A stretch of 64,000 nt of DNA from positions 3,711-67,710 of the IMG/VR virus record IMGVR_UViG_3300038705_000018, one strand, 5' to 3'. The DNA is from a virus. A program made the translations under genes and the position numbers. This document shows positions 3,204 through 32,298 of the stretch, one piece after another. Position 1 is the stretch's first letter. Each line of letters begins with the position of its first letter. The notes below the pieces were generated by a model, which was not told where the DNA came from, did no database searches, and saw only the letters and a list, made by a program, of their open reading frames with translations.

Positions 3204-3460
3204 CTACTAATCTCCCCTTCTTTCTACTTCCGTGCGCACATTCTAAAATATAATTGATCAGATTATATATATAATCATAGTATTAAAAGTAAAATATTTC
3301 TAGTATTGGAATTAAATAATTTATATGTTATCATTTATAATTTAATACAACACTTTACTATATTTACTATATTTATCCATTTTTTATTTATCGCGTTTCT
3401 CTATTAAAGTAAACTCTTCCTAACAAACGTTAAAGCATATTTTTAATTAAAAATATTTAC

Positions 3461-3491
3461 AAAAAAAGGTAGAAAAGTATACTTTTCTACC
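3461..3491 (-). terminator. Terminator of the MerR-like gene
   Basis: Perfect palindrome ggtagaaaagta/tacttttctacc at 3468-3491. The A-run at 3461-3467 gives a U-run on the minus strand. Confidence 0.75.
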
Positions 3492-3515
3492 TTTGCGTAA
3501 CTTGTATAAATGCTT

Positions 3516-4103
3516 TTACCAAAACCGCCACCACGGCTTCTTCTCTTTTGCAGCAGCAACCTCATACCGAAACTCCTGCATCATTCTCTTCGTATCCTGC
3601 ATCTCACGCAGCGTTTTCATAAGCGTCTCATCCCGTGCTTCCAATCGTTTTTCCACGCGTTCATTATGCGCTTCTACACTCGCTTTGATTTCCTCGTTAC
3701 TTTGCTTCGCCTGCTCACTTAATCGCTTCTCCATCGCTAACATGCTTTGATTCATTTCTTGCGCCATAACGCTGTACTGTTCCTGTAATTGTTGTTTAAT
3801 GTGGAATGGCACTAAGTCCGTTTCCTCAGCCTCTTCTTGAATCAGATCCGGATTAACCTTCTCTATTTGCTGCGCAATCATCTTAGCTGCCTTTTCTAGC
3901 GTCATACCGTCATGCTTGCTGATTTCAATTAATCTCTCAATAACCATAATATCGCCTTCTGAGTATTCCCGTCTGCCGCGCTTATCCTTCTTTACTGCGA
4001 ATCCCTCACGTGACAATACTTCCATGTACTTTCTAAGGGTGCTATCGGAAATTCCTATTCGTTTGTATACTTCACTAGCAGAATAAACAATTTCGTCCGT
4101 CAT
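3516..4103 (-). CDS. MerR-family HTH protein with coiled-coil C-terminus (excisionase/regulator-like)
   Basis: N-terminus YSASEVYKRIGISDSTLRKYMEVLSREGFAVKKDKRGRREYSEGDI is a typical MerR wing-HTH. Confidence 0.7.
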   Translation of the reverse strand: MTDEIVYSASEVYKRIGISDSTLRKYMEVLSREGFAVKKDKRGRREYSEGDIMVIERLIEISKHDGMTLEKAAKMIAQQIEKVNPDLIQEEAEETDLVPFHIKQQLQEQYSVMAQEMNQSMLAMEKRLSEQAKQSNEEIKASVEAHNERVEKRLEARDETLMKTLREMQDTKRMMQEFRYEVAAAKEKKPWWRFW

Positions 4104-14172: not shown

Positions 14173-15641
14173 CGATATCTCTCCCTATATGTTACTTTGG
14201 CTATTCCCACATCGGAAGGCATAATTTCAAGCTTGTTTGAACCTTTGCTAACAACTGGATAATCACTGAATATATCTTTTAAATTTATAACTTTTTTACC
14301 ATTAATCGATACAAGGCTTCGCTCGGTATCAATAACTACCTTATCTCCAACATCAAAAATGTAAGGTGGATTATCTTGTGTATTCATATTGACCTTCCAG
14401 ATTTTCAAATCATCAATGCTCATGTCTGTACAGAACATGTTATCCGAAAATTGACTGATGCTAATTTGAACTTGTGCCACTTTGTCCATATTCACATTGT
14501 TTTCATCTTCCCACACAACAAAGCGTTCCGAGTCATCCTTTTCGGTATTCCATAAAAACTTAGAAATATACGCTTCCCACCTATTACCGGTACGCGCTAA
14601 CCACAAGCGACCACGATATTGATTCCATGTAGTAGGATGGTCCCCTGGTTCATTTATAAGTACTCGCTCACCAACTGGTTTCTTTTTGTTGCCAAGCTTA
14701 GCGAACCCTGTATTTTGTTCAGCTTGCCAATGGACATCATTCATAGAAATACGAGCTACATAGTCACTGTTTTCATCCAATAAACCTATTTCAACGCGTC
14801 CCATTTGATCTGGATGCGAGCTTCTTACCCCAACATACGCCTGCATAATAAAGTCTTGCAGTGGCCCTTGCGGAATGTTCTTTTTGGCTATGCAACCATG
14901 CCATCCTTTTATGTTTGTTTCACCTAAATAAACCGGAACTAGGCGTGAGCCTGCATCCACTTTGAAAGCTCCTCCCCCTACCATATCTTCTGCATTCGGA
15001 ACATCCGTCCATCCTATAGTGGTAGACATTTCATCCCACATAACACGCTGATTTCTCTCAACAGGTACCTGATCCATTCTAAGCGGCCATCCAATACGAA
15101 AGTAATTATCTCCATTCCATACATCAAGAAAAGTGGCGGGTTTCGTTACCTCAATTTCAATAATTGGGTTAGATTCGAGACTTCCTTTGTTTTGAATATT
15201 CGCTACTAGCCCACGCTCATTAGCTTGAAATTCTACGGTTCTTGTAGGACCTAATTTATATGGCATTTCACAAATAAAAGTAAGTACTCCTTCTCCTAAA
15301 TTCACTAATTGCTGTGGGTCAAAAGATTCATCAATAACAGCCAAATACGTACGATCTTTTTCATCATCAAAGATCAGTTCTTGAGGTTGGTCTGTAATAA
15401 GCCAATCAGCTATTTCTTCCTTTAACTTTTCGGCCTCTTCCATAGATTCATAAAATAATGCAACTGGTACAATTATTTTTCTCATTTTTGTTTGTGTTCT
15501 TATCAAACGCCCACCTGGATAGTGAGGAACTTCAAGAAATGTACGTTCCAAAGGAGCCCATGCAGGGCGTTTTTTACCCTGCAATGGGATTACATTCGGA
15601 TTGCTTTTCCCGTTAAAACTAAAGAAACTAATTCCAGTCAT
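14169..15641 (-). CDS. Distal tail protein (Dit-like)
   Basis: Lies between the tape measure and the tail fibre. ATGA overlap with the downstream gene. Confidence 0.7.
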   Translation of the reverse strand: MTGISFFSFNGKSNPNVIPLQGKKRPAWAPLERTFLEVPHYPGGRLIRTQTKMRKIIVPVALFYESMEEAEKLKEEIADWLITDQPQELIFDDEKDRTYLAVIDESFDPQQLVNLGEGVLTFICEMPYKLGPTRTVEFQANERGLVANIQNKGSLESNPIIEIEVTKPATFLDVWNGDNYFRIGWPLRMDQVPVERNQRVMWDEMSTTIGWTDVPNAEDMVGGGAFKVDAGSRLVPVYLGETNIKGWHGCIAKKNIPQGPLQDFIMQAYVGVRSSHPDQMGRVEIGLLDENSDYVARISMNDVHWQAEQNTGFAKLGNKKKPVGERVLINEPGDHPTTWNQYRGRLWLARTGNRWEAYISKFLWNTEKDDSERFVVWEDENNVNMDKVAQVQISISQFSDNMFCTDMSIDDLKIWKVNMNTQDNPPYIFDVGDKVVIDTERSLVSINGKKVINLKDIFSDYPVVSKGSNKLEIMPSDVGIAKVTYRERYR

Positions 15642-15653
15642 ATCATCACCTGC

Positions 15654-18596: not shown

Positions 18597-18941
18597 TTAT
18601 TCACCCGCCTTTCCGCGGATTTTACCAACACGAGCAAACACTTCTTCTTTTGTGAGTTTCTGTTTCGGTGTTTGTTCGATTGAATTATTATATTGTAGTA
18701 CCTGTTCTTGCGTTGGGTTTTCGCGCTTATGTTTAAATTGAGGAAATGTTTCATCGCAGTACGGTTGTAGGGCACACCATTCTTCCCATAACATGCGGTC
18801 CATCTCTTTTTTCTTTGCGGTGAGATACAGATTAATAACTATCTCGACATCCAAACCACGTATGTACTCCATATTTGGATAACGAGAAGCTAACGTATCG
18901 ATGAAGTCTATTTCATCAAGTTCACCGCATTGGAAAAAAGT
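18597..18941 (-). CDS. T-like extension of the tail chaperone, reached by -1 frameshift
   Basis: The downstream ORF is in the -1 frame, which is open from 18941. The U6 run C-UUU-UUU-CC (plus-strand A-run 18934-18939) lies 9 codons before the G stop. Confidence 0.55.
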   Translation of the reverse strand, partial: TFFQCGELDEIDFIDTLASRYPNMEYIRGLDVEIVINLYLTAKKKEMDRMLWEEWCALQPYCDETFPQFKHKRENPTQEQVLQYNNSIEQTPKQKLTKEEVFARVGKIRGKAGE

Positions 18942-19336
18942 TTAACCAATCCAACTTCTGAATCTTTGATTGCAGTAAACAGCTTAACTAACTCTTCTAG
19001 ATTTAAAGTTCGTATTGTTTCCCAATCTGGAGATGTTTTTTTACCATTTTCATCTTCATAAACTAAAAGTCCAGCTACAAATTCAAAGAATTCCTGTTCC
19101 GCTTCTTCTAATCCGAAAATAAACTTCATGATAATGTCGTAACCAAAAGTCTCTTGTGCAGCTAATACATCAGCTTGTGTTGCCCCTTCTTTATTTCGTA
19201 CGCCCATCATTAAATCTTTAAGTAAGTTAATATCCACCTTAAATTTCGATTTCTTCAAAATACGAACTACAGAAAATAAATCTCCGCCATGAATTTGTCT
19301 CACTTTGTATTCTTTTTCTTGAATTGCAATAGTCAC
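18908..19336 (-). CDS. Tail assembly chaperone (G-like)
   Basis: 142-aa acidic protein between the major tail protein and the tape measure. Confidence 0.7.
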   Translation of the reverse strand: MTIAIQEKEYKVRQIHGGDLFSVVRILKKSKFKVDINLLKDLMMGVRNKEGATQADVLAAQETFGYDIIMKFIFGLEEAEQEFFEFVAGLLVYEDENGKKTSPDWETIRTLNLEELVKLFTAIKDSEVGLVKLFSNAVNLMK

Positions 19337-19382
19337 ATTTATTCCTCCTTAAAATAAAAAGAGCAGGGATTATCCCTACTCT

Positions 19383-19976
19383 CTAACCTGCTGGTATTAA
19401 TTTAGCTACTTCTATCGCTGTTAAAATACGTTTTTTCCATGGTACTTTTCGAATATTTTCTGGATCACGGTGTCCTGTGAATGTTACTTCTGGAACAACT
19501 TCACTTTCGTTTTCAAATCCTAGTTCTAATGAACCGTCAGATAATGCGTTATATACGATAATTTCAACGATATCACCACCTAAAGTTTCACCAACCCATG
19601 CTACATTTTTAAGATAGCTTTCTTTCGTAAGACGTTCTGTAGCTTCAATCACGTCGTACTTAATTGTTTTCCCGTCTTTTGTAACAGTCTCTTCTGATAC
19701 TTTTAAACCAGCAATAAAGTTTTTGATTTTTTCTTTATCCAAAAATTCAAGTGTCTTAAAACTGATTTGAGTTTTGGATTTAGTGATACGTTTCATCCCC
19801 ATTGTGTCACCAGGAGAACCATCATATTCAATTTCTTTAAACTCTGGTTCATATTTAAATGAACCGCCACCTTGCGTAGCACCTACAGGAAGTTCATCTT
19901 TTTCTCCATAATTAAAGAAGAATGCACCCCAATCTCCGAAGAGGACATTCTCTGGTTTTGGTTGTGGAGCTGCCAT
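19383..19976 (-). CDS. Major tail protein
   Basis: 197 aa. Sits upstream of the chaperones. Confidence 0.7.
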   Translation of the reverse strand: MAAPQPKPENVLFGDWGAFFFNYGEKDELPVGATQGGGSFKYEPEFKEIEYDGSPGDTMGMKRITKSKTQISFKTLEFLDKEKIKNFIAGLKVSEETVTKDGKTIKYDVIEATERLTKESYLKNVAWVGETLGGDIVEIIVYNALSDGSLELGFENESEVVPEVTFTGHRDPENIRKVPWKKRILTAIEVAKLIPAG

Positions 19977-19990
19977 ATAATCAACCCTTT

Positions 19991-20353
19991 CTATTGTCTA
20001 AAATAAGTTCGTAAAATGAGTCGCACTTCTTTGCGTATGATATTTGGGTCTGGATCAGGTACTTTCTGACTCGAAAGATAAGAAATAGCAGCACCAAATT
20101 CAGCGCTGCTTAACCTTTTTCTATGAAGATTGTTTTCTAGCTTCATAATCAGTTCATCTATTTTACTAAGATGAGCAGAAGTACCGTAAATATCAATTGT
20201 AAGCATGATATTCTTTCGTCCCCATGGTTCTTTATCATCATTAACCGTGTACACCAAATAAGGCATTACAGCGGTTGTTTTAGCGATTTCATAATACGTT
20301 TCTTTATCAATTTGTTTTAATTCACTGTGTAATATATTTATAAAGTCATTCAT
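19991..20353 (-). CDS. Tail completion / tail terminator-like protein
   Basis: Assigned by position in the head-tail joining block. Confidence 0.45.
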   Translation of the reverse strand: MNDFINILHSELKQIDKETYYEIAKTTAVMPYLVYTVNDDKEPWGRKNIMLTIDIYGTSAHLSKIDELIMKLENNLHRKRLSSAEFGAAISYLSSQKVPDPDPNIIRKEVRLILRTYFRQ

Positions 20354-20358
20354 ACTAT

Positions 20359-20766
20359 CTACCTCATTAACGACGAATAGGTTCGCGTGCCAACTTGTGT
20401 AATTTGCGGTTTATTGCTCTCTGCTGCTGGTCTAAGAAAAGGCTGTGCATGTTGCCCTTGAGTTTTAACCATCTTCCCTGTTTTAGGGTCACGGTACATC
20501 CAAGGAGTTTTACGCCCATCACCGTCTACAGCATAAATTCCTGTTCCTTTCTCAACATAAATTCCATGATCAGCAGAAGTACCGATAATAACTTTTTCTT
20601 GCTCTGCTTTAGAACTAATGCTTCTTCTTAGATTGCCAGTGTCTACAGCAGCAAGTAATTTAGCTTTAGAAGATACAAATTGACCAATAGCAGTATGAGC
20701 TGCTTTCTTTGCAGCCAAATGTCTTGCCATAACAGCGGCTCTATTGGATTGGAATTTCACGCTCAT
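20359..20766 (-). CDS. HK97 gp10-family head-tail joining protein
   Basis: Motifs TGNLRRSI and GTSADHGIYVEKGTG resemble the gp10 family. Confidence 0.6.
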   Translation of the reverse strand: MSVKFQSNRAAVMARHLAAKKAAHTAIGQFVSSKAKLLAAVDTGNLRRSISSKAEQEKVIIGTSADHGIYVEKGTGIYAVDGDGRKTPWMYRDPKTGKMVKTQGQHAQPFLRPAAESNKPQITQVGTRTYSSLMR

Positions 20767-21085
20767 ATGGCAACATCTCCAATTCTATTTGAAAGAATCT
20801 ACCCGCATTCATTGGATCGCCCGGATAAGTAACGCTGTATACCTTCTTATCGATAACTAATCTATCTTGAATAGTTACGTCGAAAAGCATGCAGTAAAAG
20901 AAATGTGTGCTTTTCTCTTCTACTTTCTTATTGCGAGCATCCTTTGTCCCTTGGATTGCATCCAATACACCTTTAACAGTATTTATTTCTTTCCATTCTT
21001 CTGTTGGATATGGCCCATCATCAAAACCAGCGTTGCGAAGTACTGTAGCATCTTTGCCAAACTTACGTAGCATTGAATGGATCAT
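20741..21085 (-). CDS. Head closure / head-tail adaptor protein
   Basis: Assigned by position and size (114 aa). Confidence 0.5.
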   Translation of the reverse strand: MIHSMLRKFGKDATVLRNAGFDDGPYPTEEWKEINTVKGVLDAIQGTKDARNKKVEEKSTHFFYCMLFDVTIQDRLVIDKKVYSVTYPGDPMNAGRFFQIELEMLPYEREIPIQ

Positions 21086-21393
21086 CGAACACGTAACCTC
21101 ACTTTCAGTCCTTTCGTGATGCTTGCTGGATAATCTCCCACGTCATCATAAGTAACAGAATAGTTACCTAATGATTCGCTTTTCTTCCCTTCTCTCTCCC
21201 GCTCCTTATACTGATGAACCACCATTTTAGCGATGATACCAGGATAAGCAGGAGGGAATTCAGGAATAGTTCTATTGGTATACTCTGCAACCATTAACAT
21301 TGTATCTTCAATGCTTATTAATAAATTTTCATCACTTATATTAGGTACTTGCAGTTTTACACGTTTTAAAATTTCTGCTTTCATATCTTCCAT
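21082..21393 (-). CDS. Head-tail connector (gp6-like)
   Basis: 103 aa, directly downstream of the capsid gene. Confidence 0.5.
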   Translation of the reverse strand: MEDMKAEILKRVKLQVPNISDENLLISIEDTMLMVAEYTNRTIPEFPPAYPGIIAKMVVHQYKEREREGKKSESLGNYSVTYDDVGDYPASITKGLKVRLRVR

Positions 21394-21436
21394 CTAATCA
21401 CCTACTTACGTAAAAGAAAAAAATGGAGAAGGCTTA

Positions 21437-22282
21437 TTAAGCCCCTCCACCTGGTTTTTCCGGAGTAATTGATGTAACTGTAGCTGTAAGTACCGCTATT
21501 GACTCTTGACGAAGGATATCTCCACCATAAACCATAAGACCACGAATACCATCTGCAAAGGAATTTTGCAGACGTTGTGCCTCTGTTTCAGTTAACTGTG
21601 TCCCGTATCCAATAGCAGACTTATGAAGACCTAAAATTTTATACTTACCACCAGTACCGTGAATTTCTTCTGATACAACGATTTGTGATCCATTAATAAT
21701 CTGTCCTTCAACAATACCATTTTCTAAAACAACAGGTTGCTTAGTAAAGCGATCATCTTTAGATAATAAACCTAAAACCTGAGAATTGATGATTGTGAAT
21801 CGTTCAGTTTTAGGAACCTTTTTAATATTTAAAATCGTATTTAAGTCTACAATGTAATCATATGCATTTTTAGGTGATAACTCAATTGGACTAGAGTCAC
21901 TCCCAATTGTATGAGTTTTATGTGCGCCTTTATAAAGCCCTAATACGAATGTATCAACGGTTTCCTGAAGTACCGCTCCTGCCTCTTGTGTATGTGGGTC
22001 GATTAAATCTCCAGCAGCCTGAACTGCATCTACATCATCAACTTTGAAAGCAAAATACTTTTGTTGATCCATATTAATTTCTACTTTAGAAGGGTTGGTA
22101 TCATCCCATTCGATTGTACCATTATAATCTTTTACATTTACTGCGCCTACACGATTAAAGATAATCTTATTACCTTCGATTTTCGTTGGCGTTGTTGTAA
22201 TTAAATCCGCAATAGAACGCTTGTGAAAGTTCGCCATCAAGCGCGCTTCCCAAATTGTTGGAATAAAAGTTGATACTGACAT
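21437..22282 (-). CDS. Major capsid protein
   Basis: 281 aa after the scaffold gene. Strong RBS. Confidence 0.75.
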   Translation of the reverse strand: MSVSTFIPTIWEARLMANFHKRSIADLITTTPTKIEGNKIIFNRVGAVNVKDYNGTIEWDDTNPSKVEINMDQQKYFAFKVDDVDAVQAAGDLIDPHTQEAGAVLQETVDTFVLGLYKGAHKTHTIGSDSSPIELSPKNAYDYIVDLNTILNIKKVPKTERFTIINSQVLGLLSKDDRFTKQPVVLENGIVEGQIINGSQIVVSEEIHGTGGKYKILGLHKSAIGYGTQLTETEAQRLQNSFADGIRGLMVYGGDILRQESIAVLTATVTSITPEKPGGGA

Positions 22283-22399
22283 ATATTAATTCCTCCTTAA
22301 TGTTTTTCCATAACAAAAGAGATTACTAAACTAGCAATCTCTTTTGTTCGTTTTATATTTTTTTGAATGTACCATTCAAATCACTTAACTTTCCTAGTG

Positions 22400-23131
22400 C
22401 TACTTACCCCAATTGCGCATATCCTTCTGAATTTGTGGCCAGTTCGCATTAATTTCAGCTTGACTCATTGAATTTACTTGTTCTCTCGTAAATCCCCCTC
22501 CAGTTCCGCCACTAACATGGATTTCTCGGCCAGCAGCTTTAAACTTTTCAGCCACTTTTACTTCTAATGCAGTAGAGAATAAATCATTAAACTTTGACAC
22601 CCTAACTTTTGTATCTTCTACATCTGAACCAATAACAAAATCTACAAATTTAAGATCCAATCCAACCGCTGATAAACCATCTGATGCAACACTCTGCATT
22701 TCTTTCTGATGAAGTACCCTTTCTCGCTCTTCTAGTTGTTCCTGAAGTTGCTTCATCTCATATTCAGCTTTCTCTTGTGCAGTCATAGAAGCGGTTTTAT
22801 AGTTCTCTAATTCCTTTTTTGTTGCATTCAGTTCTTTCGAATATTTAGAGCGCACTCTATCTTCCGCTGATTGTACCATCTTCTCAATAAATGTTTTTGT
22901 TGCATCATCTAATTTCGGTTCTTTTTGTTCACCAACTGGCGGTTCTTTTTGCTCTTCAACTAGTGAATCTTTTATATCATCCGCAGGTGATGTTTGTTCA
23001 TTCTGTAGTGTCTCATCTGCAGGTATTGCAGGATCAGAAAAGAATTGCAGATTTGATAAACGAAACGGTAACTTTGTTAGTTCTCTTTCTTTTAAAAACT
23101 GTACTTCCGCTTGCTTTTGTAATTGTTTCAT
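22400..23131 (-). CDS. Scaffolding protein
   Basis: Acidic coiled-coil protein upstream of the capsid gene. Confidence 0.7.
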   Translation of the reverse strand: MKQLQKQAEVQFLKERELTKLPFRLSNLQFFSDPAIPADETLQNEQTSPADDIKDSLVEEQKEPPVGEQKEPKLDDATKTFIEKMVQSAEDRVRSKYSKELNATKKELENYKTASMTAQEKAEYEMKQLQEQLEERERVLHQKEMQSVASDGLSAVGLDLKFVDFVIGSDVEDTKVRVSKFNDLFSTALEVKVAEKFKAAGREIHVSGGTGGGFTREQVNSMSQAEINANWPQIQKDMRNWGK

Positions 23132-23203
23132 TATTATTCCTCCTCTGAGTTCCTATGAATACACCCTATTTAGTTCGTATTTTATAAGCCCTCGTGTGTT
23201 TTA

Positions 23204-24130
23204 TTATTCAAGAGAGTCTTTCCATTCCTCGTAACTAACTGCGCTAATCACCTCATTCTTACCTGTAGTTGGGTTTCTGGCCCTTCTCTCAATGAATGAG
23301 CTAACATCCGCTACCTCAGTAATGAAAGTACAGCGGCATCGTACAACTTCTTTAGCAGGTAAATTACTATCATGTGGATATTCGCAACTATAACCACCGA
23401 CTTTAAATAATCCTTTAAACGGTACTTTTTGATGATCTGCTGCTTGGTGAGTAGGACGCGTACGTTTATCTAATGTAGAAATCCAAATCTTCTTCATTGA
23501 TACACCTTCATCAAAAGCGTGAGAAGCACTGTCATAAGTACCTAAGTTTTGCACCCTAGCACTTTCTGTCCAAACGACCATTTGGGCTTTCTTCGCATCA
23601 CCATCAAGTATCGGCTTAATCCGATTTGCCATTGTTGCATATCCTTCGCCTTTTCTAAGACCGATAGATAACTCTCTGCGTATTCGGTTAACTATCTGTA
23701 CTCGATGTGTACTTAACCTTTGATTGAGTGTCATTTTATCGATTGGCATTTGTACCGCTCGTTTAATGACGTTCGGGTCAAGAAGACCATACGAAAGAGC
23801 CACGCCGACTTCTTTCTCGATGAGATAACTCGTATAATAAAAAGACTCTCCATACTGATTGGAGAGCGTTTCATTGAGAGTTTTCTTTTTCTCATATGTT
23901 ATTTCATTAATAACGTGTTGCAGTTCACTTTGCATGCTCTTATATCGATTGAATCGGCGCATTTCCTGCATACTCAACTGCTCATTTACGGCATATTTGG
24001 CATAATAAAAAGCCAGTATTCCTCTGACTTCTTCTAAAGCATCTTTATACAGGTAGAGAATCGCCTTTTCCAGTTCGTCCTCTATCTTTTGGAGATGTTT
24101 CTGCTTCTTGTCCCATTCCACTAGGCTCAC
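23204..24130 (-). CDS. Head morphogenesis / minor capsid protein (SPP1 gp7-like)
   Basis: Sits after the portal. C-terminal motif DKRTRPTHQAADHQ...RCRC. Confidence 0.7.
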   Translation of the reverse strand: MSLVEWDKKQKHLQKIEDELEKAILYLYKDALEEVRGILAFYYAKYAVNEQLSMQEMRRFNRYKSMQSELQHVINEITYEKKKTLNETLSNQYGESFYYTSYLIEKEVGVALSYGLLDPNVIKRAVQMPIDKMTLNQRLSTHRVQIVNRIRRELSIGLRKGEGYATMANRIKPILDGDAKKAQMVVWTESARVQNLGTYDSASHAFDEGVSMKKIWISTLDKRTRPTHQAADHQKVPFKGLFKVGGYSCEYPHDSNLPAKEVVRCRCTFITEVADVSSFIERRARNPTTGKNEVISAVSYEEWKDSLE

Positions 24131-25469
24131 CTACCTTGTCGAGATTCATGGAATCCGCCTCTTCTTCCTGCATCTTCTGTATCTCCGCTTTCGGATCAGA
24201 AACAACAGATAACATAGATAATCGTGTTTCTTCGCTTACTAAACCTTGTAGTTTAGACTGCACATCAGCTTCATCAGCTAAGTTGGCTGGAAGGTTTCGC
24301 GTAAATTGAAACGTCATACAAAGGTAGTCTAGTTCTCCTTTATTTGAGCGTAAGTTCCAAGCGTCAAACAATAACTTAAATTGTTGTCGCAATGACTTAG
24401 TAAACTTCATTTCTAATGTTCCTGATTTAGTTTCTAAAGCTAATAACTTGTAACGAATAGCAACACCAGTAAGGTTACCACCAAATGATTCATCAGAAAG
24501 GTTCACATGCTTTGTGAAACGGCATATATTCTTTTCTAATCTGTCGAGATGGTGTTCTAAGATGTTGTCATTAAGGTCCTTAGTTAAAAAAGAAGCCTCA
24601 CCATTCTCACCTACATCAAGAGCTCCTGTTTGTTTTAGCTTCTCGATAGTATCATCATCTATATCAACGCCTTTAAAGATCATATAAGCCAGACGAAACT
24701 GTTCAATTTCACTGTTTACATCGGAAAATGAACGGTCGTAACCTTCAATAAGTGATATAGCTTTATCTACATCGCCTTGTAATTCTTCATTATTAGGAAA
24801 CCCAATAAGTGGCACACCTTTAAATAAGTTTGGAATACGGTCAGTCTCTGTTAACTTATCTAAACCTTCACCAGTGTACTCAATAATGTTTGTTTCATTG
24901 TAAAACTCTACTTTGTAACCATCCTTGAAATCATCACCATCAATTACTTTGATTGGATAGCAGCGTATAGCGTATTTAGGTTCTGCAATACTTGAATTCG
25001 TAAGAAATATAGCTTCGTAAGGTTTGATATTCATAACCTTTTCGATACCTTCTTTATCGTGATACAGTAGTCTCGCTCCGTATCCACAAATAGAAGCGAA
25101 CTTCCCTGTTTCTGCGTCAGCATCCTCAGTATGATTCGCTTTTAAAAAGTCCTGAATACGTTTCAATACTTCATCATCTTCATGATCTAAGCTGTATGAG
25201 ATAGGCACCCCAAACATATAACCGATTTTTGTATCGATAATTTCAGAAAAGAAGTCATTGTTTAGCTTATTGTTAACCTTATCTTTATTACCATCACCTT
25301 TAAACTCGCGAGTAAAGATAGGCACACCCTTTTCACTTGCTTTGTATCGCTCGTACCTGTTAATCATGCGTTGTTTTAATGGTTCAAACTCATCAATAAT
25401 TTTTTTTAGTAACTTTGATGTAGGCTCGCCATTTTGTTCATCCAGCAACGGAATATAGTGTTCAAACAT
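24045..25469 (-). CDS. Portal protein
   Basis: 474 aa, directly after the large terminase. Confidence 0.85.
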   Translation of the reverse strand: MFEHYIPLLDEQNGEPTSKLLKKIIDEFEPLKQRMINRYERYKASEKGVPIFTREFKGDGNKDKVNNKLNNDFFSEIIDTKIGYMFGVPISYSLDHEDDEVLKRIQDFLKANHTEDADAETGKFASICGYGARLLYHDKEGIEKVMNIKPYEAIFLTNSSIAEPKYAIRCYPIKVIDGDDFKDGYKVEFYNETNIIEYTGEGLDKLTETDRIPNLFKGVPLIGFPNNEELQGDVDKAISLIEGYDRSFSDVNSEIEQFRLAYMIFKGVDIDDDTIEKLKQTGALDVGENGEASFLTKDLNDNILEHHLDRLEKNICRFTKHVNLSDESFGGNLTGVAIRYKLLALETKSGTLEMKFTKSLRQQFKLLFDAWNLRSNKGELDYLCMTFQFTRNLPANLADEADVQSKLQGLVSEETRLSMLSVVSDPKAEIQKMQEEEADSMNLDKVGEPSGMGQEAETSPKDRGRTGKGDSLPV

Positions 25470-25481
25470 CGTCTCACCTCC

Positions 25482-26756
25482 TTAATAGATTGACTTAACA
25501 GCCTTAGCTTTGTTATTAGTTACAACAACTGTATTTACAAAGTAACGATCACCATCCATTTGGTGGTCATTCTCTTTATTTGGTTTATCTTCACCACGAG
25601 CTGTAGCTTTTTCATCCCAAGTATAAGAAGCGTATTCACGGAATGTTTCTTTACAGCAGTCGTTGTATTTTATCTTATCTTCATTAAGAAGTCGCGCTAC
25701 ATTTCGTATGCCATCTATAACTTCATTCTTAGCTTTAAGCACTTTGAATCGATTCTTTTTCAATAAAGCAATAAATGAAGCTGCTGATGGGTCAACTATA
25801 ATCCCACGAATAGAAATATCTCCGATGAATTCTTTTAGGTCGTCAAGATACTCATCATCTGTCTTTTGCCGTGAATTTTTACGACCATCATAATGGTACT
25901 CTTTTGTTTTGTACCATATACCTTTACACAATCCCCATAGTCCATATGTCATAGGGTTCTGTGTACCATAGTCACAAGATACATAATACTTCTCGTATTC
26001 TCTTTCTACTGTTTTTACAACATGCTTTTCTTTGTTAAACATGTCATATACAATACCTTCTGCAAGCACCCATAAACCTAAAATGAAGCGTTGAAAGAAG
26101 ACTCCACTATACATACGATAGTATCTTTGCTTCACTTTTTCAGATAAAGAAAGATTATCGTCCATTGTAAAATGAATATGTAGCAGGTTCTTGTCTTCCT
26201 TATTATCTATCCATTCAAGTTTGAACCAATGATACGGGCCGGCAGGGTTACAGTTAAACCAATACTTTGAGCCTTCAATAGAACAACGTCCTGTCGCTTG
26301 GTTCACAAAGCTTTGCGGCATAAGAGCAACTTCATCAAAAAACATACCAGCTAATGTAATACCTTGGATAAGTTCTTGTGATGATTCGTCCTTACCACCA
26401 AATATATAGAAATGATTCGTATGGCCATCTTTACTAATGGTAAGCATGTTCTCTGATAGATGGTCTTTCACTTTATATTTACGTGATTTTAACATCTTCT
26501 TTAATGGAGTAATTACGTTGCGTCGCAGTGATCCAATTGTTTTACCTGCCATACCTAAGTTTTCACCATTAAATGTTGCAGTTCCCCACATAACATAAGA
26601 AAGAGCCATCGAAACAGTTTTGCCAGCACGAATAGAACCATCGCATATAATACCGTCATGGTCCTTCACAAGTGAATCTTTTCTCCACCAAGTGAGTACT
26701 TTTAATTGTTTCTTTGAGAATGGTCTAAATTTAAAAGGGGCAGGTTTAAGTCTCAT
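25482..26756 (-). CDS. Terminase large subunit
   Basis: Walker A DGSIRAGKT, Walker B MFFDEVA. C-terminal nuclease-like region. Confidence 0.9.
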   Translation of the reverse strand: MRLKPAPFKFRPFSKKQLKVLTWWRKDSLVKDHDGIICDGSIRAGKTVSMALSYVMWGTATFNGENLGMAGKTIGSLRRNVITPLKKMLKSRKYKVKDHLSENMLTISKDGHTNHFYIFGGKDESSQELIQGITLAGMFFDEVALMPQSFVNQATGRCSIEGSKYWFNCNPAGPYHWFKLEWIDNKEDKNLLHIHFTMDDNLSLSEKVKQRYYRMYSGVFFQRFILGLWVLAEGIVYDMFNKEKHVVKTVEREYEKYYVSCDYGTQNPMTYGLWGLCKGIWYKTKEYHYDGRKNSRQKTDDEYLDDLKEFIGDISIRGIIVDPSAASFIALLKKNRFKVLKAKNEVIDGIRNVARLLNEDKIKYNDCCKETFREYASYTWDEKATARGEDKPNKENDHQMDGDRYFVNTVVVTNNKAKAVKSIY

Positions 26757-27657
26757 CTTCCCACACCTCTGCTGTTTTACCTTCTAACGCATCGATGAAT
26801 CCGTCATCTTCATACTCTTCACCTTCATCACCTTTAATACGAGAAGTATCTGCTTTAATTTTATCAATTTGAGCTTTCTGCACTTCCATCTGCATTTTGT
26901 GGCGTTCTTCTTCGATTTTACGTTTGAAATTGTCAGGTACTAAGTCAAAGTACTGAGATAGTTTGTCCAGTGCTTTCATCTTGTCAGCAAGTTTTACTGA
27001 CACGCCATCTTTTCCGAGTTTTACTTCGGTTATTATAGAACCATCAACCATGTCAGCCTCGTGTAAATCTACATAATTTATGATACGAGTTATTTCTTTA
27101 CCGGATTCATCTTTCATCGGTCCAAACCTCCCCATTACAGGTACTTCCTTCTGTCCAAAGGTTACATAGTTAGTAATATCAGCAAAAGCAATCTTAATGT
27201 ACTCTTTAAGTACATCCATAGCTTCTACAAATACATTCTCGACTAACTCACCTTTAAGCTCCTTTATATAGGAAGAAACTCGTTCACGTCTTAGCAATCG
27301 ACTAGCCTGTACATGAGCACCGTCTTTGGAGTATCCAGCCTTCAGTGCAGCTTGTGTACCATTGAAGTATTTCACATAATACAAACAAAAGAGCCTTTCT
27401 TTTTCGGATAGCTCCTCATCGTCTAATATTTCTTTCAATTTTTTCTTCGTTTTGGGATTTTCTACTTTGGTAATTACCTTTTTGCCAGCGGTAATATTAC
27501 CGGTAATATTTTCATCCCATTTATCAATCGTTTTCCACTTTCTGATTAAAGAAACGCTTTTTCCTAAATCAGCAGCTATGTCTTCGATAGGAATTTCACC
27601 TTTCGAATTCTTGTACATCTCAAATGCTTTATCTCGTTCTGGGCTTCGTCTACTCAT
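26746..27657 (-). CDS. Terminase small subunit with N-terminal HTH
   Basis: ERLFCLYYVKYFNGTQAALKAGYS is a TerS signature. Overlaps the TerL start. Confidence 0.8.
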   Translation of the reverse strand: MSRRSPERDKAFEMYKNSKGEIPIEDIAADLGKSVSLIRKWKTIDKWDENITGNITAGKKVITKVENPKTKKKLKEILDDEELSEKERLFCLYYVKYFNGTQAALKAGYSKDGAHVQASRLLRRERVSSYIKELKGELVENVFVEAMDVLKEYIKIAFADITNYVTFGQKEVPVMGRFGPMKDESGKEITRIINYVDLHEADMVDGSIITEVKLGKDGVSVKLADKMKALDKLSQYFDLVPDNFKRKIEEERHKMQMEVQKAQIDKIKADTSRIKGDEGEEYEDDGFIDALEGKTAEVWEDET

Positions 27658-27728
27658 GTCACATCACCTTCTCATCTCCACTCTTGTATACAAATTAAAA
27701 AAGACCACCTTATATGAAGTGATCTTTT

Positions 27729-28415
27729 TTAATCTATATACTTTTCACTACTAATTCGTTGATACTCTAATATATTATCTAATCGGTTTTGTTCAAAGAA
27801 AGGTTGGCTTCTAAACCAATCATTTAAATCTTGATTATTTTTCGTTCTGTTGCATCTTGAACACGCTGGAATGATATTATCGATACTATATGTTCCACCT
27901 TTATCTACAGAAATGATGTGTTCCTTTTCTAAGCTATCCGCAACATCTCCACAGTATGCACAACAACTTTCGTTATCTTCATTTCTAAAGTAATTTTTAC
28001 ATTCTTCCCACTCTTCATTTGAAATAGAATCACCTAGATGAAGGTTCACTCGTCTTTCTATCTTGTTTATTTTCCTGCCTAAGCCCTGATTTTCCATCAA
28101 TTTAACTAACAAATCGCAAGCTTTGAGTTTACTCTCGATGGATACGTCATCAGATTTTATTGCTGTTGTCACTACATTAAGAACTTGCAGGTAAAGTGTC
28201 TTTTTATTATCTTCTTTGTTATCATTTTCAGATTCTTTACCATCGACGCTTAAATTTTCTTCTTGTGCATTCCACTTATAGTAATACTTCCATTTTCTAA
28301 CCTGAGACTCAGAGACGCCTATTTCTTTAGCTATATCTTTTAATAATATTTTACCGTTTTCTCTTTTCCATATTTCATAAGCAGTATAGCTTTTTTCGCT
28401 TCTGGCTCTAGCCAT
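27729..28415 (-). CDS. HNH endonuclease with N-terminal HTH (packaging-associated)
   Basis: RBS GAGGAGGG before MARARSEK. HNH core CAYCGD...EHIISVDKGG...NIIPACSRCNRTKNN. Confidence 0.8.
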   Translation of the reverse strand: MARARSEKSYTAYEIWKRENGKILLKDIAKEIGVSESQVRKWKYYYKWNAQEENLSVDGKESENDNKEDNKKTLYLQVLNVVTTAIKSDDVSIESKLKACDLLVKLMENQGLGRKINKIERRVNLHLGDSISNEEWEECKNYFRNEDNESCCAYCGDVADSLEKEHIISVDKGGTYSIDNIIPACSRCNRTKNNQDLNDWFRSQPFFEQNRLDNILEYQRISSEKYID

Positions 28416-28416
28416 A

Positions 28417-29001
28417 TTAACCCTCCTCAGTATTTGAAACTGATTGTTTAGAATCATGTTCTTTTATATACCTATAAAGGGTTGCGCGAGCTACATCAAA
28501 CATTTCGCATACTTCTACTTTTGTTTTACCAGTAGCAAGCATTTCCATCATGCCTTGTATTTGTTGAGGAGTATGAGCTTTCTTTCTACCACCTTCTCTT
28601 CCTCTTGCCTTAGCGGCAGCTACACCGCTAATAACACGCTCATTAATTACTTCACGTTCCATTTCAGCCATAGCGCCAAATATATGAAATAGGAATCTTC
28701 CCATTGTTGTAGATGTATTAATTCCATCTTTAATAGAAACAAAGTGAATTCCCTTTTCATTAAACTCTTGTAGTAAATTAACAAGCTGATGCATTGTTCT
28801 TCCTAAACGATCAAGTTTATAAACAACTAAAGTATCGTCCTTTCGAAGTTTACTAAGAAGCAGATGAAGTTCTTTTCTATCCTTCTTCGCACCACTTTCT
28901 TTTTCAGTTATGATTTCCTCACAACCATATCGTTTCAACTCATCTAATTGCATATCCAAACTTTGCTTTTTGGTCGATACCCTCGCATAACCAAATATCA
29001 T
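28417..29001 (-). CDS. Small serine recombinase (resolvase/invertase family)
   Basis: MIFGYARVSTKKQSLDMQ has the catalytic Ser. C-terminal HTH ARATLYRYI. 194 aa, so not a large serine integrase. Confidence 0.9.
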   Translation of the reverse strand: MIFGYARVSTKKQSLDMQLDELKRYGCEEIITEKESGAKKDRKELHLLLSKLRKDDTLVVYKLDRLGRTMHQLVNLLQEFNEKGIHFVSIKDGINTSTTMGRFLFHIFGAMAEMEREVINERVISGVAAAKARGREGGRKKAHTPQQIQGMMEMLATGKTKVEVCEMFDVARATLYRYIKEHDSKQSVSNTEEG

Positions 29002-29032
29002 TCCCCATCACCCTTTATGTTTGATAGGTTAA

Positions 29033-29148
29033 TTGTATCAATTTCCTGTCTCAAATTCAATTGTTTTTGATACATAGTTTTGATACATAATAATCGTTGA
29101 TAATCGGTTGATGGTGACTACGTATCATAATCAAATGTTTTTGAGACA
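29033..29148. promoter_or_regulatory. res-like cluster of recombinase half-sites
   Basis: TTGTATCAA 29033-41, TGTCTCAAA 29047-55, TTGATACA 29067-74 and 29080-87, GTATCATA 29122-29, TTTGAGACA 29140-48. Both orientations, directly upstream of the recombinase. Confidence 0.5.
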
Positions 29149-29443
29149 TTGAACTTACTACGAACGATGCTTTAATCCAGCTAAAGTTGCTTTGATAAAC
29201 ACCTTTTCTTCATCACCGACTTGAGTTAATAACTTATCGACTATATATCTATCTGTGTTATGCAATACCGCTCACATAAGCCGTAGCGTCTTTGCTTTCA
29301 CCATTCATTTGCATAGAAAACGTAACGTTAGGTTTCATCCCCTCACCCCTTATCTTTCCTTAACAACAAACAAGACGCCACCCAGATCACGGCAGCGCCT
29401 ACAATAATTGCTATACACTTAATCAAAATCATTTATCCTCACA

Positions 29444-29635
29444 TTATTTATTTCTTTGCTTCCATACCCCATTCTCTTTACGATAAGTATTCTTGCCATC
29501 CATGAATTCAGCTGTATTACCAGGAATGCTATATTTCTTATTCTTTTTCTTAGCCTTCTTCTTCAATCTCTTCTCTTCTTGAACAGCTTGCAAATCCGCC
29601 TTCCATTGTTTCAACAAATCCTTTTCACGTCGCAT
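29444..29635 (-). CDS. Small basic phage protein
   Basis: 63 aa, Lys-rich. Confidence 0.45.
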   Translation of the reverse strand: MRREKDLLKQWKADLQAVQEEKRLKKKAKKKNKKYSIPGNTAEFMDGKNTYRKENGVWKQRNK

Positions 29636-29817
29636 CGAATTTGTACCCCTCGGATTAAAATGTAAACCAAATAATTAGATTCTACCTATTTATATAGAAT
29701 CCTTTAATCCAAATGTCCATTTTTTCAGACTCTCGTTTAGCATGTACCAATTTCTGTTTTTTCTTCTATATAGACCAACGATGTATTATAATTCTTTATA
29801 TACCCAAGGAGGTTTCC

Positions 29818-29916
29818 ATGCTTAAATTTCATAAAACATTCCCCATCTTAGGATTCTTTTGGTTTTTATACGGTTTCATCGGTCTCGTCTTTTTATTACT
29901 ATTCCTTAACGTTTAG
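29818..29916 (+). CDS. Small hydrophobic peptide (32 aa)
   Basis: RBS AAGGAGG before ATG29818 (MLKFHKTFPILGFFWFLYGFIGLVFLLLFLNV). Confidence 0.4.
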   Translation: MLKFHKTFPILGFFWFLYGFIGLVFLLLFLNV

Positions 29917-29993
29917 TAACCATGCATGTAAACATATGTTTAATGTGTAATTTCTATATAACAAAGAAAAAAGTACCCGTTATGGATGCTTGA

Positions 29994-30347
29994 TTAGCCT
30001 AAAAAGACAGTTGTTGCAGTTTTTATAGCGAGTGCCTTCATTATTTCAAACGGGATATTCCCACCTTTTTCTGCAATAGTTTGTTTTAATTTTTTCCATA
30101 CTGTATCATTTTTTATTGCATCTAAGAACTCATGTCCATCCCATGTTAATGTACTATGAATCCACATAGGAGCGTTATCAGCATAGAATATTTTATTCTC
30201 TGTAAAACCAGCTTGTTCTAATAAATTCAAGTGATAGACTGCTACCTTTCTATCAATTTCAGACGGAATATTCAATTCCTTGCTATTATCATCTTGTTCC
30301 TCAATAAGTACCAATAGTTTTCTAACTAACTCCATATCTCTTTTCAT
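29994..30347 (-). CDS. DUF2513-like protein
   Basis: RBS AAGGGGAA before MKRDMELVRKLL. Motif WDGHEFLD. Confidence 0.55.
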   Translation of the reverse strand: MKRDMELVRKLLVLIEEQDDNSKELNIPSEIDRKVAVYHLNLLEQAGFTENKIFYADNAPMWIHSTLTWDGHEFLDAIKNDTVWKKLKQTIAEKGGNIPFEIMKALAIKTATTVFLG

Positions 30348-30410
30348 TTGTAATTCCCCTTTTAAGTTTAATTCTCCATATTTATACATTGTAGCACTAT
30401 TTTCCAATAG

Positions 30411-30445
30411 AGAAAAAATAAAAAGCCATCACCGAAGTGACAGCT
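30411..30445 (-). terminator. Minus-strand intrinsic terminator closing the ORF-free segment
   Basis: On the minus strand: AGCUGUCAC-UUCG-GUGAUGGCU, 9 bp with two G.U pairs that exist only on this strand, then UUUUAUUUUUU. Confidence 0.7.
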
Positions 30446-31250
30446 TTCAAGGGGATGGGAGAAAAGAGAGAAAACAAATGGCAAGGTCTCTCTTAGATCA
30501 AGGCTGAGTGCTCTCAACCTTCTCCAAGCCACCGCATCATGTAATTTTTTAGCCCTTATTAGCTACACGCCTCACGTTCGGTGGCTAGGAGAAGACTAAG
30601 AATCTTCTCGTTTATACTCCGTAGAGCTGGTCAATATATCGGCTGTCGCATGGCCTTAGCTGATTAAATCGTTTATACAATAATTTATATCCAAGACGTA
30701 TATGTTTCTTCCGACGCCTTGTTTGAACCAATACACTAGAGGTACGGAAGGGGAATGTTTCCGCTGTATTGGCTCAAACAAAGAGTGGAACTCTTTGCCC
30801 TCGTTTTTGTCATTAATAAGAATCATGGGTAATTACTAATGTACGAGATACGTATACTTTTTAGCTTTTTAGAATGCAAGTGTCACTCAATCATGAGCAA
30901 CCACCCCCATTCCATTTTCAAGAACCGACATAATAAAAGAAACTAGACTTATATTTATTATCAACCCAGAGGACGCATTCCGAGCTGATTGATAAATACA
31001 ATAAAAACAGCATGACGAATGCGAATTATCTCACACCCGCCACACTGGAATATGTCATTGTAATACATTCATTGGTCTTTTCGTCTTAACGCGGGTTCGT
31101 ACCGCCTTGCCCGCCCTACTATGCGGTATACGTTACCGTGACATTCTCGCATAAGAACGTTTCACTTGTAGGTGTACTAATCCTCTTCGATATGCGGTTG
31201 TCAAAGAGCTTGTACATTAAGAATATCGTTGATTTCATTATCAAAATTCC
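30446..31250 (-). ncRNA. Candidate large structured noncoding RNA (family unknown)
   Basis: About 0.8 kb with no track ORF in any frame. G+C counted by hand is 27/60 (30541-30600) and 35/60 (31081-31140), against 18/60 in flanking CDS. Several long helices and its own terminator. Confidence 0.4.
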
Positions 31251-31345
31251 CCCTATTTAGTCCCCTTTTTTGTCGGTATTTTGTCGACGTTTTTAAATAC
31301 AAAAAGAGCAGAATCAATATAATGACTCTACTCTATATGTACTAT

Positions 31346-31825
31346 TTAGTTTGTTTTCTCATATTTATAATTAAGCTTTTCAGCAACTTCCTTTAAAAAA
31401 GCTTCCTTATCTTCAGCTTCTTTAAAATTCTTTTGGAATTTTTCCCAATGATTATTCATATCAAAATCTACTCTTCCAATAGACATTCCATTATCAGTAG
31501 GTGCTACTAAATATTTCTCAGGTCCAGATGACAGGTGCAAAGGATTACTTTTACCAAATTGCTCTTTTAAAGATAATGATACAACTGCATACTTTCCGCC
31601 TTTATATTCAGTTTCCTCAACTTTATATAAAGCATATTCATTAGCACGATCTCTCTTTCCGTGCATTTTCCATTCATTATCTTCTGTTATTTCTATAAAT
31701 GTATATCCATCACTTTCCTTGTACTTGTCTCCCTTTTTAAAAGCTACCGAAGAGCCTCCACACCCTGTAAGTAAAATCAATATACTTACAAATAAAACTG
31801 ATAATAATTTCGTTTTCTTAAACAT
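31346..31825 (-). CDS. Lipoprotein (prophage moron)
   Basis: Lipobox LLTGC in MFKKTKLLSVLFVSILILLTGCGGS. Confidence 0.75.
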   Translation of the reverse strand: MFKKTKLLSVLFVSILILLTGCGGSSVAFKKGDKYKESDGYTFIEITEDNEWKMHGKRDRANEYALYKVEETEYKGGKYAVVSLSLKEQFGKSNPLHLSSGPEKYLVAPTDNGMSIGRVDFDMNNHWEKFQKNFKEAEDKEAFLKEVAEKLNYKYEKTN

Positions 31826-31914: not shown

Positions 31915-32298
31915 TCAAATCATACCCAATGAAGTTGCGATTAATCGAATAGCATTTTTCTTCTTATAATAGAAATGATCTTTCTTCATTGATAATTCAG
32001 TGTAGATAAAACTATCCTTTAACTTCCCACCATTCAAATACTTCATCTTAATAATCTCTGCCTCATCATAATCTAAAACGTGTTGTAAAGCCTTATCGAT
32101 TTGCTTGAATTTTACATTACTGACATGTCTTGTATTACTTATCTCAGGAAACAGACTAATTCCCTCTTGTTGTTGCTCCATTTCATTCTCAAAACGTGCT
32201 TTTAAGGCGCGATACTCTTTTAGAATGCTCACAACTTCCTTTTGCATCTTCTTTTCCATTTCTTTGTCCATTACTGGTAAGAAAGCTAATTGTTCCAT
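31915..32298 (-). CDS. ArpU-family late transcription regulator
   Basis: 127 aa between the replication and packaging modules. The N-terminus resembles ArpU-type phage regulators. Confidence 0.55.
   Translation of the reverse strand: MEQLAFLPVMDKEMEKKMQKEVVSILKEYRALKARFENEMEQQQEGISLFPEISNTRHVSNVKFKQIDKALQHVLDYDEAEIIKMKYLNGGKLKDSFIYTELSMKKDHFYYKKKNAIRLIATSLGMI

Follow-up and report, generated by a model that had tools for sequence, protein, structure and literature searches.

The 64,000-nucleotide (nt) window analysed here, positions 3,711 to 67,710 of the virus record IMGVR_UViG_3300038705_000018, contains an unannotated interval between a DUF2513 gene (29994-30407, -) and a lipoprotein gene (31346-31825, -). 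The interval is very probably a gene for a highly structured RNA of about 0.8 kb, encoded on the minus strand. Computational analysis shows an RNA with about 18 hairpins that are kept through compensatory and G.U-type changes. The RNA is non-coding, strand-specific and conserved in the temperate phages and plasmid-prophages of the Bacillus cereus group. A preliminary description, made from the sequence alone, had suggested a large structured RNA that is encoded on the minus strand and reads in the same direction as the lytic genes; this is borne out by strand-specific folding, an excess of G.U pairs and compensatory changes.

The limits of the RNA are defined by the conservation of its homologues, which rises sharply at about 31290/31210 and drops at about 30415. 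The element has a G+C content of 41.6%, whereas the window as a whole has 34.3% and the genes on either side have 31%; the values counted earlier by hand are exact (45.0% at 30541-30600, 58.3% at 31081-31140 and 30.0% at 31381-31440). Folded as a minus-strand RNA (796 nt), the segment has a minimum free energy (MFE) of -259.4 kcal/mol (z = -8.14), and 0 of 20 dinucleotide shuffles folded as well. The plus strand has an MFE of -194.8 (z = -1.47). The signal in the gene-free segment is strand-specific and well above chance, confirming the initial observation.

Individual helices were tested in MAFFT alignments that had not been fitted to structure, and the controls were the same helices with the 3' partner slid by 1-3 columns, together with 500 column shuffles. 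The alignment of the middle third (31005-30685) contains 30 sequences with pairwise identity of at most 93%. Its 66 pairs (in P5a, P5b, P6, P8, P9, P10, and P11) are paired in 92.9% of the cells, against 38-43% in the slid controls. Changes on both sides are found in 25 of these pairs (107 cells), against 5-14 pairs (6-44 cells) after sliding, and none of the 500 shuffles reaches the observed value. The 3' third (29 sequences, including those of a second phage group) has 60 pairs, paired in 88.5% of the cells (slid controls, 37-51%), with both-side changes in 21 pairs (slid controls, 7-16; 0 of 500 shuffles as high). In the 5' third (61 distinct sequences), 93.7% of the cells are paired, against 32-52% in the slid controls; covariation is weak in this third because it varies so little between copies. 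Taken together, the other two thirds have 46 pairs with changes on both sides, and there are about 18 helices overall. Covariation among homologues had been suggested earlier as a check, and compensatory changes exceed both the slid and the shuffled controls. A global covariation scan (G-test with average product correction, APC) was non-discriminating: it was dominated by linkage arising from module swapping, especially of promoter alleles. Tests helix by helix with slid and shuffled controls were used because the global scan was swamped by this linkage.

The pairing also indicates the strand. Over all predicted helices there are 1999 G.U cells and 234 A-C cells, a count that is biased by the prediction itself. 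G.U pairs would be A-C mismatches on the opposite strand, which argues for a minus-strand RNA over a DNA element. P10 and P5 exist in several unrelated sequence versions and the helix is kept in all of them, for example CCAAUACA/UGUAUUGG, CUAACGUA/UACGUUAG, CCAAUGUA/UACAUUGG and CCAGUACA/UGUGCUGG. Overall, the molecule reads as about 18 hairpins in a row, in which a number of loops and linkers are conserved. These include GACAUAUUCCAG, AAUGGGGGUGG, the loop CGGAAGAAAC of P11, GUAUAAACGAGAAG, and a polypyrimidine run ending in UCUCCCAUCCCCUU. Two loops are of the UNCG type, UACG in P14 and UUCG in the terminator.

The interval has no conserved reading frame, no codon periodicity and no protein-family homology. 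The longest open reading frame (ORF) wholly inside it codes for 56 amino acids (aa; 30656-30826, -). The earlier statement that no ORF of 60 aa or more is present holds for ORFs of this kind and fails for one of 75 aa with a TTG start (30280-30507, +), which is antisense to DUF2513 and overlaps the interval by 97 nt. None of the 10 short ORFs in the interval matches Pfam at E <= 0.1; the single match among them, at E = 0.14, is at chance level and far under the curated cut-off. Across 68 distinct homologues, the median longest ORF is 55 aa, substitution variability by codon phase is flat (0.153/0.149/0.144), and 17% of 979 indel events are divisible by 3.

Homologues occupy unannotated gaps in 22 records of Bacillus phages, in 131 plasmids from the same genus, in over 100 contigs of IMG/VR and metagenome origin, and in 13 contigs from genomes. 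By blastn, the element has 76-83% identity to an unannotated gap of 0.9-1.1 kb in phages 0105phi7-2, IEBH, vB_BceS_LY4, phage 250, PfNC7401 and PfIS075, the last five being Cecivirus or related. A 170-nt core is found by the same search in Waukesha92, BMBtp3, phi4J1, phiS58, BceA1/SpaA1, TP21T and CUBc25. An invariant 20-mer occurs in at least 80 IMG/VR contigs, from which 68 distinct full-length copies of 71-95% identity were obtained. A scan of metagenomes with the 20-mer, aimed at transcript-sized contigs, gave 33 contigs with ends unrelated to the RNA boundaries. Megablast found the element in 131 PLSDB plasmids, all from Bacillus and none annotated at that spot, and many carriers are plasmid-like prophages of 50-70 kb. 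A degenerate P11 pattern, run on one-genome-per-species representatives, matched 13 contigs, of which 12 are from B. cereus-group species. The thirteenth is a 56-kb contig labelled 'Frankia sp. RB7', an actinobacterium (JAUEPE010000041.1); contamination or mislabelling is likely, because the contig has the size of a plasmid-prophage and the element is one of B. cereus-group phages. In the carefully annotated genome of 0105phi7-2 (2631-3553 of its stretch), the locus tags jump from 077 to 079 exactly at the RNA gap, where an ORF call may have been removed.

The RNA was previously unclassified. When the whole window was scanned with cmscan against Rfam 15 at gathering thresholds, there were 0 matches. 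A scan of 30200-31500 at E < 10 gave noise only: an L20 leader on the neighbouring terminator, and plant and animal microRNA and small nucleolar RNA models with 12-21 bits against cut-offs of 36-110. The RNA thus belongs to none of the Rfam 15 families, including GOLLD, ROOL, OLE, HEARO, raiA, group I and II introns, 6S, transfer-messenger RNA (tmRNA), RNase P and T-box, and the earlier inability to assign it to a family stands after the Rfam scan, even at E < 10. The searchable literature, queried also with literal sequence strings, yielded no description of it; overlap with an unnamed candidate in a survey of 10,006 viral conserved structured RNA (csRNA) candidates is possible. We class it with the large structured RNAs of phages and with late leader RNAs; what sets it apart is that it is built into an Ltr-type late-gene switch.

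Its closest likeness in kind is to the ornate phage RNAs of the GOLLD and ROOL type, with which it has in common its size, many covarying helices and a phage or prophage location. GOLLD and ROOL typically lie near tRNA islands, an association that is missing here, as ARAGORN found no tRNA or tmRNA in the window. Like ROOL, it is large, structured and encoded by Firmicute phages and prophages; unlike ROOL, it has no Rfam match, lies in another genomic context, and is known from predicted hairpins only. Like GOLLD, it is about 0.8 kb long, encoded by phages and prophages, and rich in conserved helices. In GOLLD, the 3' region is conserved and the 5' region variable, as in the RNA described here; GOLLD expression rises during lysis (PMC12286853), which resembles the late timing that we infer for our RNA. 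The two differ in that the present RNA does not match the GOLLD model, is not next to tRNAs, is found in B. cereus-group hosts, is tied to an Ltr/ArpU late promoter, and has its terminator ahead of the late genes. The features of the RNA and its promoter are listed in Table 1.

Table 1. Features of the structured RNA and its upstream region (positions are those of the window; percentages are the fraction of alignment cells paired).
Feature	Position	Strand	Evidence or remarks
Whole RNA	30413-31211	-	About 0.8 kb; conservation profile, strand-specific folding, covariation
ArpU-family (Ltr superfamily) late transcriptional activator gene	31915-32298	-	127-aa ORF; context, outside RNA
Intrinsic terminator of lipoprotein moron	31305-31334	-	12-bp stem, then TTTTTGTATTT; consensus scan
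Four direct repeats in 11-bp phase: CGACAAAA, CGACAAAA, GGACTAAA, GGGGGAAT	31246-31286	-	Presumed ArpU operator
Promoter-like core TTGATA, 17-nt spacer, CTTAAT	31216-31244	-	Read from sequence; inferred start about 31211-31209
P1, 5'-proximal hairpin	31208-31201/31190-31183	-	83.8%; 3 pairs changed on both sides
P2 domain	31115-31172: P2 31172-31168/31119-31115, P2a 31160-31153/31148-31141, P2b 31138-31134/31128-31124	-	90-97%
P4, 18-bp hairpin then UUUUU, internal terminator-like	31003-31047 (31047-31030/31025-31008)	-	Consensus terminator scan
P5, two-part hairpin	30949-31001: P5a 31001-30992/30958-30949, P5b 30988-30979/30970-30961	-	14 of 20 pairs changed on both sides
G-rich motif AAUGGGGGUGG	30900-30912	-	Near-invariant; complementary to C-rich CCAUCCCC; candidate long-range partner
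P6 hairpin	30882-30901	-	87%; 3 pairs changed on both sides
P8 hairpin	30811-30841	-	83%; 2 pairs changed on both sides
P9 hairpin (caaagagt/actctttg)	30778-30798	-	100%; A-U to G.U at two positions
P10, long hairpin with variable inner hairpin	30723-30777	-	99.2%; 5 pairs changed on both sides (e.g. CG 18 / UA 11)
P11 hairpin, conserved loop CGGAAGAAAC	30692-30721	-	98.7% including second phage group; GU to AU and UA to UG changes
P13 hairpin	30629-30665: outer 30665-30661/30633-30629, inner 30655-30653/30643-30641	-	79-90%; 3 pairs changed on both sides
P14 mini-hairpin CUC-UACG-GAG (UNCG-type loop), then conserved GUAUAAACGAGAAG	30617-30626	-	
P15	30609-30602/30596-30589	-	Kept through one-sided changes in Waukesha type (manual reading)
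P16, long hairpin	30594-30579/30534-30519	-	92.7%; 4 pairs changed on both sides
P17 hairpin	30503-30518	-	88%; 3 of 6 pairs changed on both sides; alternative sequence versions occur
P18, variable hairpin (aagagag/ctctctt)	30464-30494	-	Unrelated hairpins substitute in other copies
Polypyrimidine run ending in near-invariant UCUCCCAUCCCCUU	30449-30478	-	Directly 5' of terminator; kept in both phage groups
Intrinsic terminator	30413-30448: 12-bp stem 30448-30437/30432-30421, UUCG loop, then UUUUUAUUUUUU, U-run to 30413	-	Consensus scan

The four helices named in the preliminary description are all present and conserved: 30721-30735/30765-30779 corresponds to P10, 30519-30534/30579-30594 to P16, 30779-30797 to P9, and 30463-30493 to P18. 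The position of P10 that had been read as an A-C mismatch on the plus strand is a G.U pair on the minus strand in 22 of the 30 sequences and A-U in 7. Covariation in the P2 domain is weak because that segment is highly conserved. P4 has six G.U positions that vary to A-U, G-C or U-A only, with 98-99% of the cells paired (61 sequences), and its U-run is interrupted in most copies (UUUCUAUU). Some copies swap the whole sequence of P5 and retain the hairpin. P9 has an extra C-G pair in many copies, gained by an insertion plus a substitution. P18 is poorly aligned by MAFFT, with 63% of the cells paired. Several invariant sequences are able to form mutually exclusive helices: P9 and P11 exclude an extended P10, P15 excludes outer P16, and GGAGAAGG can pair with UUUUCUCC. 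Copies of the phage 250 type (about 1285-1706 of the phage 250 stretch; alignment columns 880-985) have about 80 nt inserted between P14 and P15, and the insert forms a hairpin of its own; other copies have an extra hairpin, AGCUCAUUAAAGAGCU, directly past the presumed start. Such additional hairpins indicate that the RNA tolerates modular insertions.

A G+C-rich hairpin followed by a U-run at a fixed position, as expected of an intrinsic terminator, is present at 30448-30413 and 31047-31003. In the former, which forms the 3' end of the RNA, 89.9% of the cells are paired and 4 pairs are changed on both sides. The preliminary description had pointed to a terminator here with two G.U pairs specific to the minus strand; these pairs are seen (UG in 21 of 29 and GU in 25 of 29 sequences), and the consensus scan also found the terminator. 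Copies that do not have this terminator sequence have another hairpin and U-run in its place.

The RNA has relatives in a second group of phages, of the Waukesha type. In these, a shorter ORF-free gap of about 590 nt lies directly downstream of the gene for a sigma-70-like 'positive control' late factor. Homology to the RNA in the window is confined to the 3' 330 nt, a common module that begins with P11 and runs through the terminator, and the 5' part is unrelated. Folding of the Waukesha-type RNA is significant (z = -4.64), and in its MFE fold a different G-rich segment, AAAGGGGU, pairs with the same C-rich motif. The 3' 330 nt are thus common to phages with a different class of late regulator. 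The module is therefore more conserved than the regulators, which points to a partner in the host. In Waukesha92, BMBtp3, CUBc25 and phi4J1, CGAAA-type repeats with 11-bp spacing (GCGAAAAATGT / CGAAATTTGTG) are found ahead of a TATATA box, just 3' of the gene for the sigma-like factor. Because such repeats occur in this second subfamily as well, the promoter architecture is seemingly common to phages of the ArpU and sigma70_r4 types.

The genomic context of the RNA is that of a late-gene switch. The gene order, all on the minus strand, is RecU, the ArpU-family activator, the lipoprotein moron, the RNA, DUF2513, small ORFs, terS (26746-27657), terL, portal and so on to the tail genes. The positional counterparts of the activator in 0105phi7-2 and PfNC7401 are annotated as ArpU-like or ArpU family, and wherever the flank is long enough, an ArpU homologue is found 67-830 nt upstream of the RNA. 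Ascertainment in the opposite direction agrees: when IMG/VR loci were collected solely by their ArpU protein, 37 of 37 had the RNA 220-820 nt downstream in the same orientation. Between the two are 2-4 direct repeats of the kind listed in Table 1 in every copy. Six types of repeat map one-to-one onto ArpU identity classes (100-80%, 69-61%, 60.6%, 60-58%, 53.6% and 42%), and the match of alleles holds whatever is inserted between the repeats and the gene. The exact repeat pair occurs once in the window. An AT-rich hexamer (CTTAAT, TTATAT or TATTAT) is found at the equal position in all copies, and conservation starts at ACAAGC just 3' of this promoter hexamer.

Activators of the Ltr superfamily (ArpU, RinA, LtrA/sigma70_r4, LtrB, and LtrC) bind to direct repeats of allele-specific sequence, which lie just past the activator's own gene and ahead of the late promoter (Quiles-Puchalt et al., 2013; PMC3753634). 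The Ltr activator is the only phage protein needed to switch on the packaging and lysis genes, and premature late expression was remarked to be harmful (PMC3753634). The arrangement in the window resembles that of the Ltr-dependent late promoters (RinA/ArpU/LtrA-C) in having allele-specific repeats immediately distal to the ltr gene (PMC3753634). It differs in what follows. In the Ltr phages of Staphylococcus aureus and Enterococcus faecalis that have been studied, the repeats and promoter are directly upstream of terS, whereas in the window the promoter and terS are separated by the 0.8-kb RNA, its terminator and 2-3 kb of small, variable genes. By analogy with the studied phages, the late promoter probably drives the RNA in an ArpU-dependent manner, with the start near 31211. 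With its start at the ArpU-dependent late promoter, the RNA would be the first product of that promoter. The terS, terL, packaging, head, tail and lysis genes are all downstream on the same strand. Since the only recognisable ArpU site precedes both the RNA and these genes, RNA polymerase would have to cross the RNA to express them. The terminator of the lipoprotein moron would insulate the RNA promoter from upstream transcription.

The sequences on either side of this unit vary. The lipoprotein slot (31305-31825, -) contains a Dam methylase and a small ORF in 0105phi7-2 and is empty in many copies, where the ArpU stop codon is 67-78 nt from the repeats. On the other side (29938-30407, -), the DUF2513 gene resembles a moron that has entered between the terminator of the RNA and a conserved block, CTTTGTTATATAGAAATTACACATTAAAC (about 29968-29938). 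This block directly follows the terminator in phage 250 and several IMG/VR copies, and the U-rich terminator tail is apparently duplicated at the end of the DUF2513 insert. An ORF of 194 aa resembling a serine recombinase or resolvase (28417-29001, -) is found in the late region between the RNA and terS, and phage 250 has a fragment annotated 'similar to resolvase' at the matching position. The small ORFs downstream of the RNA fall into many clusters, with no universal protein among them. Since the genes immediately 3' of the RNA vary, there is no fixed protein partner there.

How might an RNA in this position act? We propose, at a probability of about 0.45, that it is a cis-acting gate, or leader, of the late operon. 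The ArpU-family activator would bind the four phased repeats (31286-31246) and turn on the late promoter, so that transcription would proceed from about 31211. The conserved 3' domain (P11-P18) may be closed by a helix between a G-rich segment and the invariant UCUCCCAUCCCCUU next to the terminator, and it would then set the balance between termination, which would release a stable free RNA, and read-through into the late genes. Gating might work through a conserved host component such as RNA polymerase, as in PR'-6S-tR' of lambda or the put RNA of HK022; a host component is proposed because the 3' domain is common to phages with different regulator classes. Compared with the preliminary description, what is added is that the RNA would begin at an ArpU-dependent late promoter, that it has an internal terminator-like hairpin, and that it shares only its 3' third with the second phage group.

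Both model systems offer likenesses and differences. As in the late leader of lambda (PR' - 6S RNA - tR', with read-through by Q), a non-coding transcript from the late promoter would meet an intrinsic terminator before all the late genes. The lambda leader is short, however, at 194 nt and without elaborate conserved structure, its promoter is constitutive, and Q is the regulator; in the window the promoter appears to be activator-dependent and no Q-like factor is known. The put RNA of HK022 and the EAR RNA of Bacillus subtilis are promoter-proximal structured RNAs that act in cis on the host polymerase, and a mechanism of this type would explain why the 3' module is kept across regulator classes. 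The location of the RNA, promoter-proximal and upstream of terminators and late genes, is consistent with antitermination of the put/EAR type. These RNAs differ in being about 70-120 nt long, with two or few hairpins, and no similarity between them and the RNA in the window was detected.

The presence of a 3'-end terminator in every variant, even where the sequence has been replaced, and the terminator-like nature of P4 are counted in favour of the gate. The mutually exclusive helices and the G-rich/C-rich closure are compatible with it. The late operon (10500-30420) contains 20 terminator-like sites, against 10.3 +/- 3.1 expected (both strands counted). A strong co-oriented hairpin of this kind (12 bp, then a U-run) is inside the operon at 19384-19358 (-), and another co-oriented one is at 29373-29400 (-). 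Such hairpins suggestively fit a need for read-through, without deciding on antitermination.

Several points weigh against the gate. The start site, the activity of both terminators, and read-through are all inferred. A manual search found no conserved antiterminator pairing that overlaps the terminator stem; one candidate, the P13 loop GCGACAGC opposite the 5' arm of the terminator, was rejected because of a mismatch and because it is not kept in the second phage group. The long-range helix between AAUGGGGGUGG and CCAUCCCC is a hypothesis taken solely from its recurrence in the Waukesha-type fold, as covariation does not support it and the duplex energies are -13.58 for cognate and -13.50 for non-cognate partners. 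The co-variation of repeats and ArpU could partly reflect physical linkage, and a second, unrecognised late promoter downstream of the RNA is possible. With its 0.8 kb and about 18 conserved hairpins, the RNA greatly exceeds what any known cis-acting antitermination element requires (about 70 nt in the case of put). A strong terminator that is universally kept suits a free-standing RNA gene equally well.

The last two points lead to a close rival of the gate, namely a free-standing ornate RNA that acts in trans in the manner of GOLLD and ROOL. It would be the bulk product of the late promoter, released at its own terminator to act on a host or phage target or to self-assemble, and expression of the late genes would depend on ordinary partial read-through or on another promoter. 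We consider this reading credible and somewhat less likely than the gate. A promoter and a terminator of its own are kept in all variants, and its size and the number of its conserved hairpins and loops surpass the needs of a cis element. The UUCG and UACG loops and the 5'-proximal hairpin are features of stable RNAs. The layout of conserved 3' and variable 5' regions and the phage or prophage location are GOLLD-like, and GOLLD is up at lysis (PMC12286853). The RNA is, however, never found apart from the Ltr gene and repeat module, and the Rfam models of GOLLD and ROOL do not match it. The window also lacks the tRNAs near which GOLLD and ROOL typically reside, and no target or oligomerisation interface was identified.

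A passive role is improbable. The RNA would then be a long 5' leader or insulator with hairpins that merely shield the late mRNA against 5'-3' decay and stop leaky transcription of upstream genes from running on into it. Terminators do flank the promoter and end the element, a 5'-proximal hairpin is present, and the harm from premature late expression (PMC3753634) would make insulation useful. A shield of this kind leaves unexplained the conserved loops and single-stranded motifs over 0.8 kb, the compensatory retention of many helices that are not terminators, and the 330-nt module common to phage genera with different regulators.

It is very improbable that the segment acts as DNA, whether in packaging, in replication or partition of the plasmid-prophage, or as a hot spot of recombination. 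Such a DNA element would suit the many carriers that are plasmid-like prophages of 50-70 kb, a location a few kb upstream of the terminase genes, and the mosaic pattern of module swapping; against it are the reliance of the helices on G.U pairs (the prediction-biased count given above), significant folding on one strand only, and the lack of iterons or tandem repeats besides the promoter repeats. A decayed protein-coding gene, for which the missing annotation is the sole point in favour and which had been named earlier as a possibility to check, can practically be dismissed on the Pfam search of the ORFs and the codon-phase and indel analyses, since the copies have no ORF in common, no 3-base periodicity of substitutions and no Pfam match, and in-frame indels are rarer than expected by chance.

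To our knowledge, fewer than ten classes of very large structured RNAs have been described in bacteria and phages, and most of them, including GOLLD and ROOL, are without a known function. The present RNA has an informative context: it follows the activator-dependent late promoter of an experimentally characterised regulator family and stands between that promoter and every late gene. Because this context is defined, its role is directly testable. The RNA is abundant and is present in phages that can be grown (IEBH, phage 250, 0105phi7-2, and LY4), and it fills a recurrent unannotated gap of 1 kb in the annotations of B. cereus-group phages and plasmids. It could reveal how a large group of Gram-positive phages gates its late transcription, a group for which the published model puts the promoter directly at terS. 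A bolder view, on balance unlikely, is that it represents a novel class of large, ornate RNA that phages have built into their late-gene switch, either an RNA-only device for processive antitermination or timing about ten times the size of put, or a late-made, self-assembling machine like the nanocages of GOLLD and ROOL. If that were true, it would be the first such RNA with a known promoter, inducer (ArpU) and downstream targets, in genetically tractable phages of B. cereus and B. thuringiensis.

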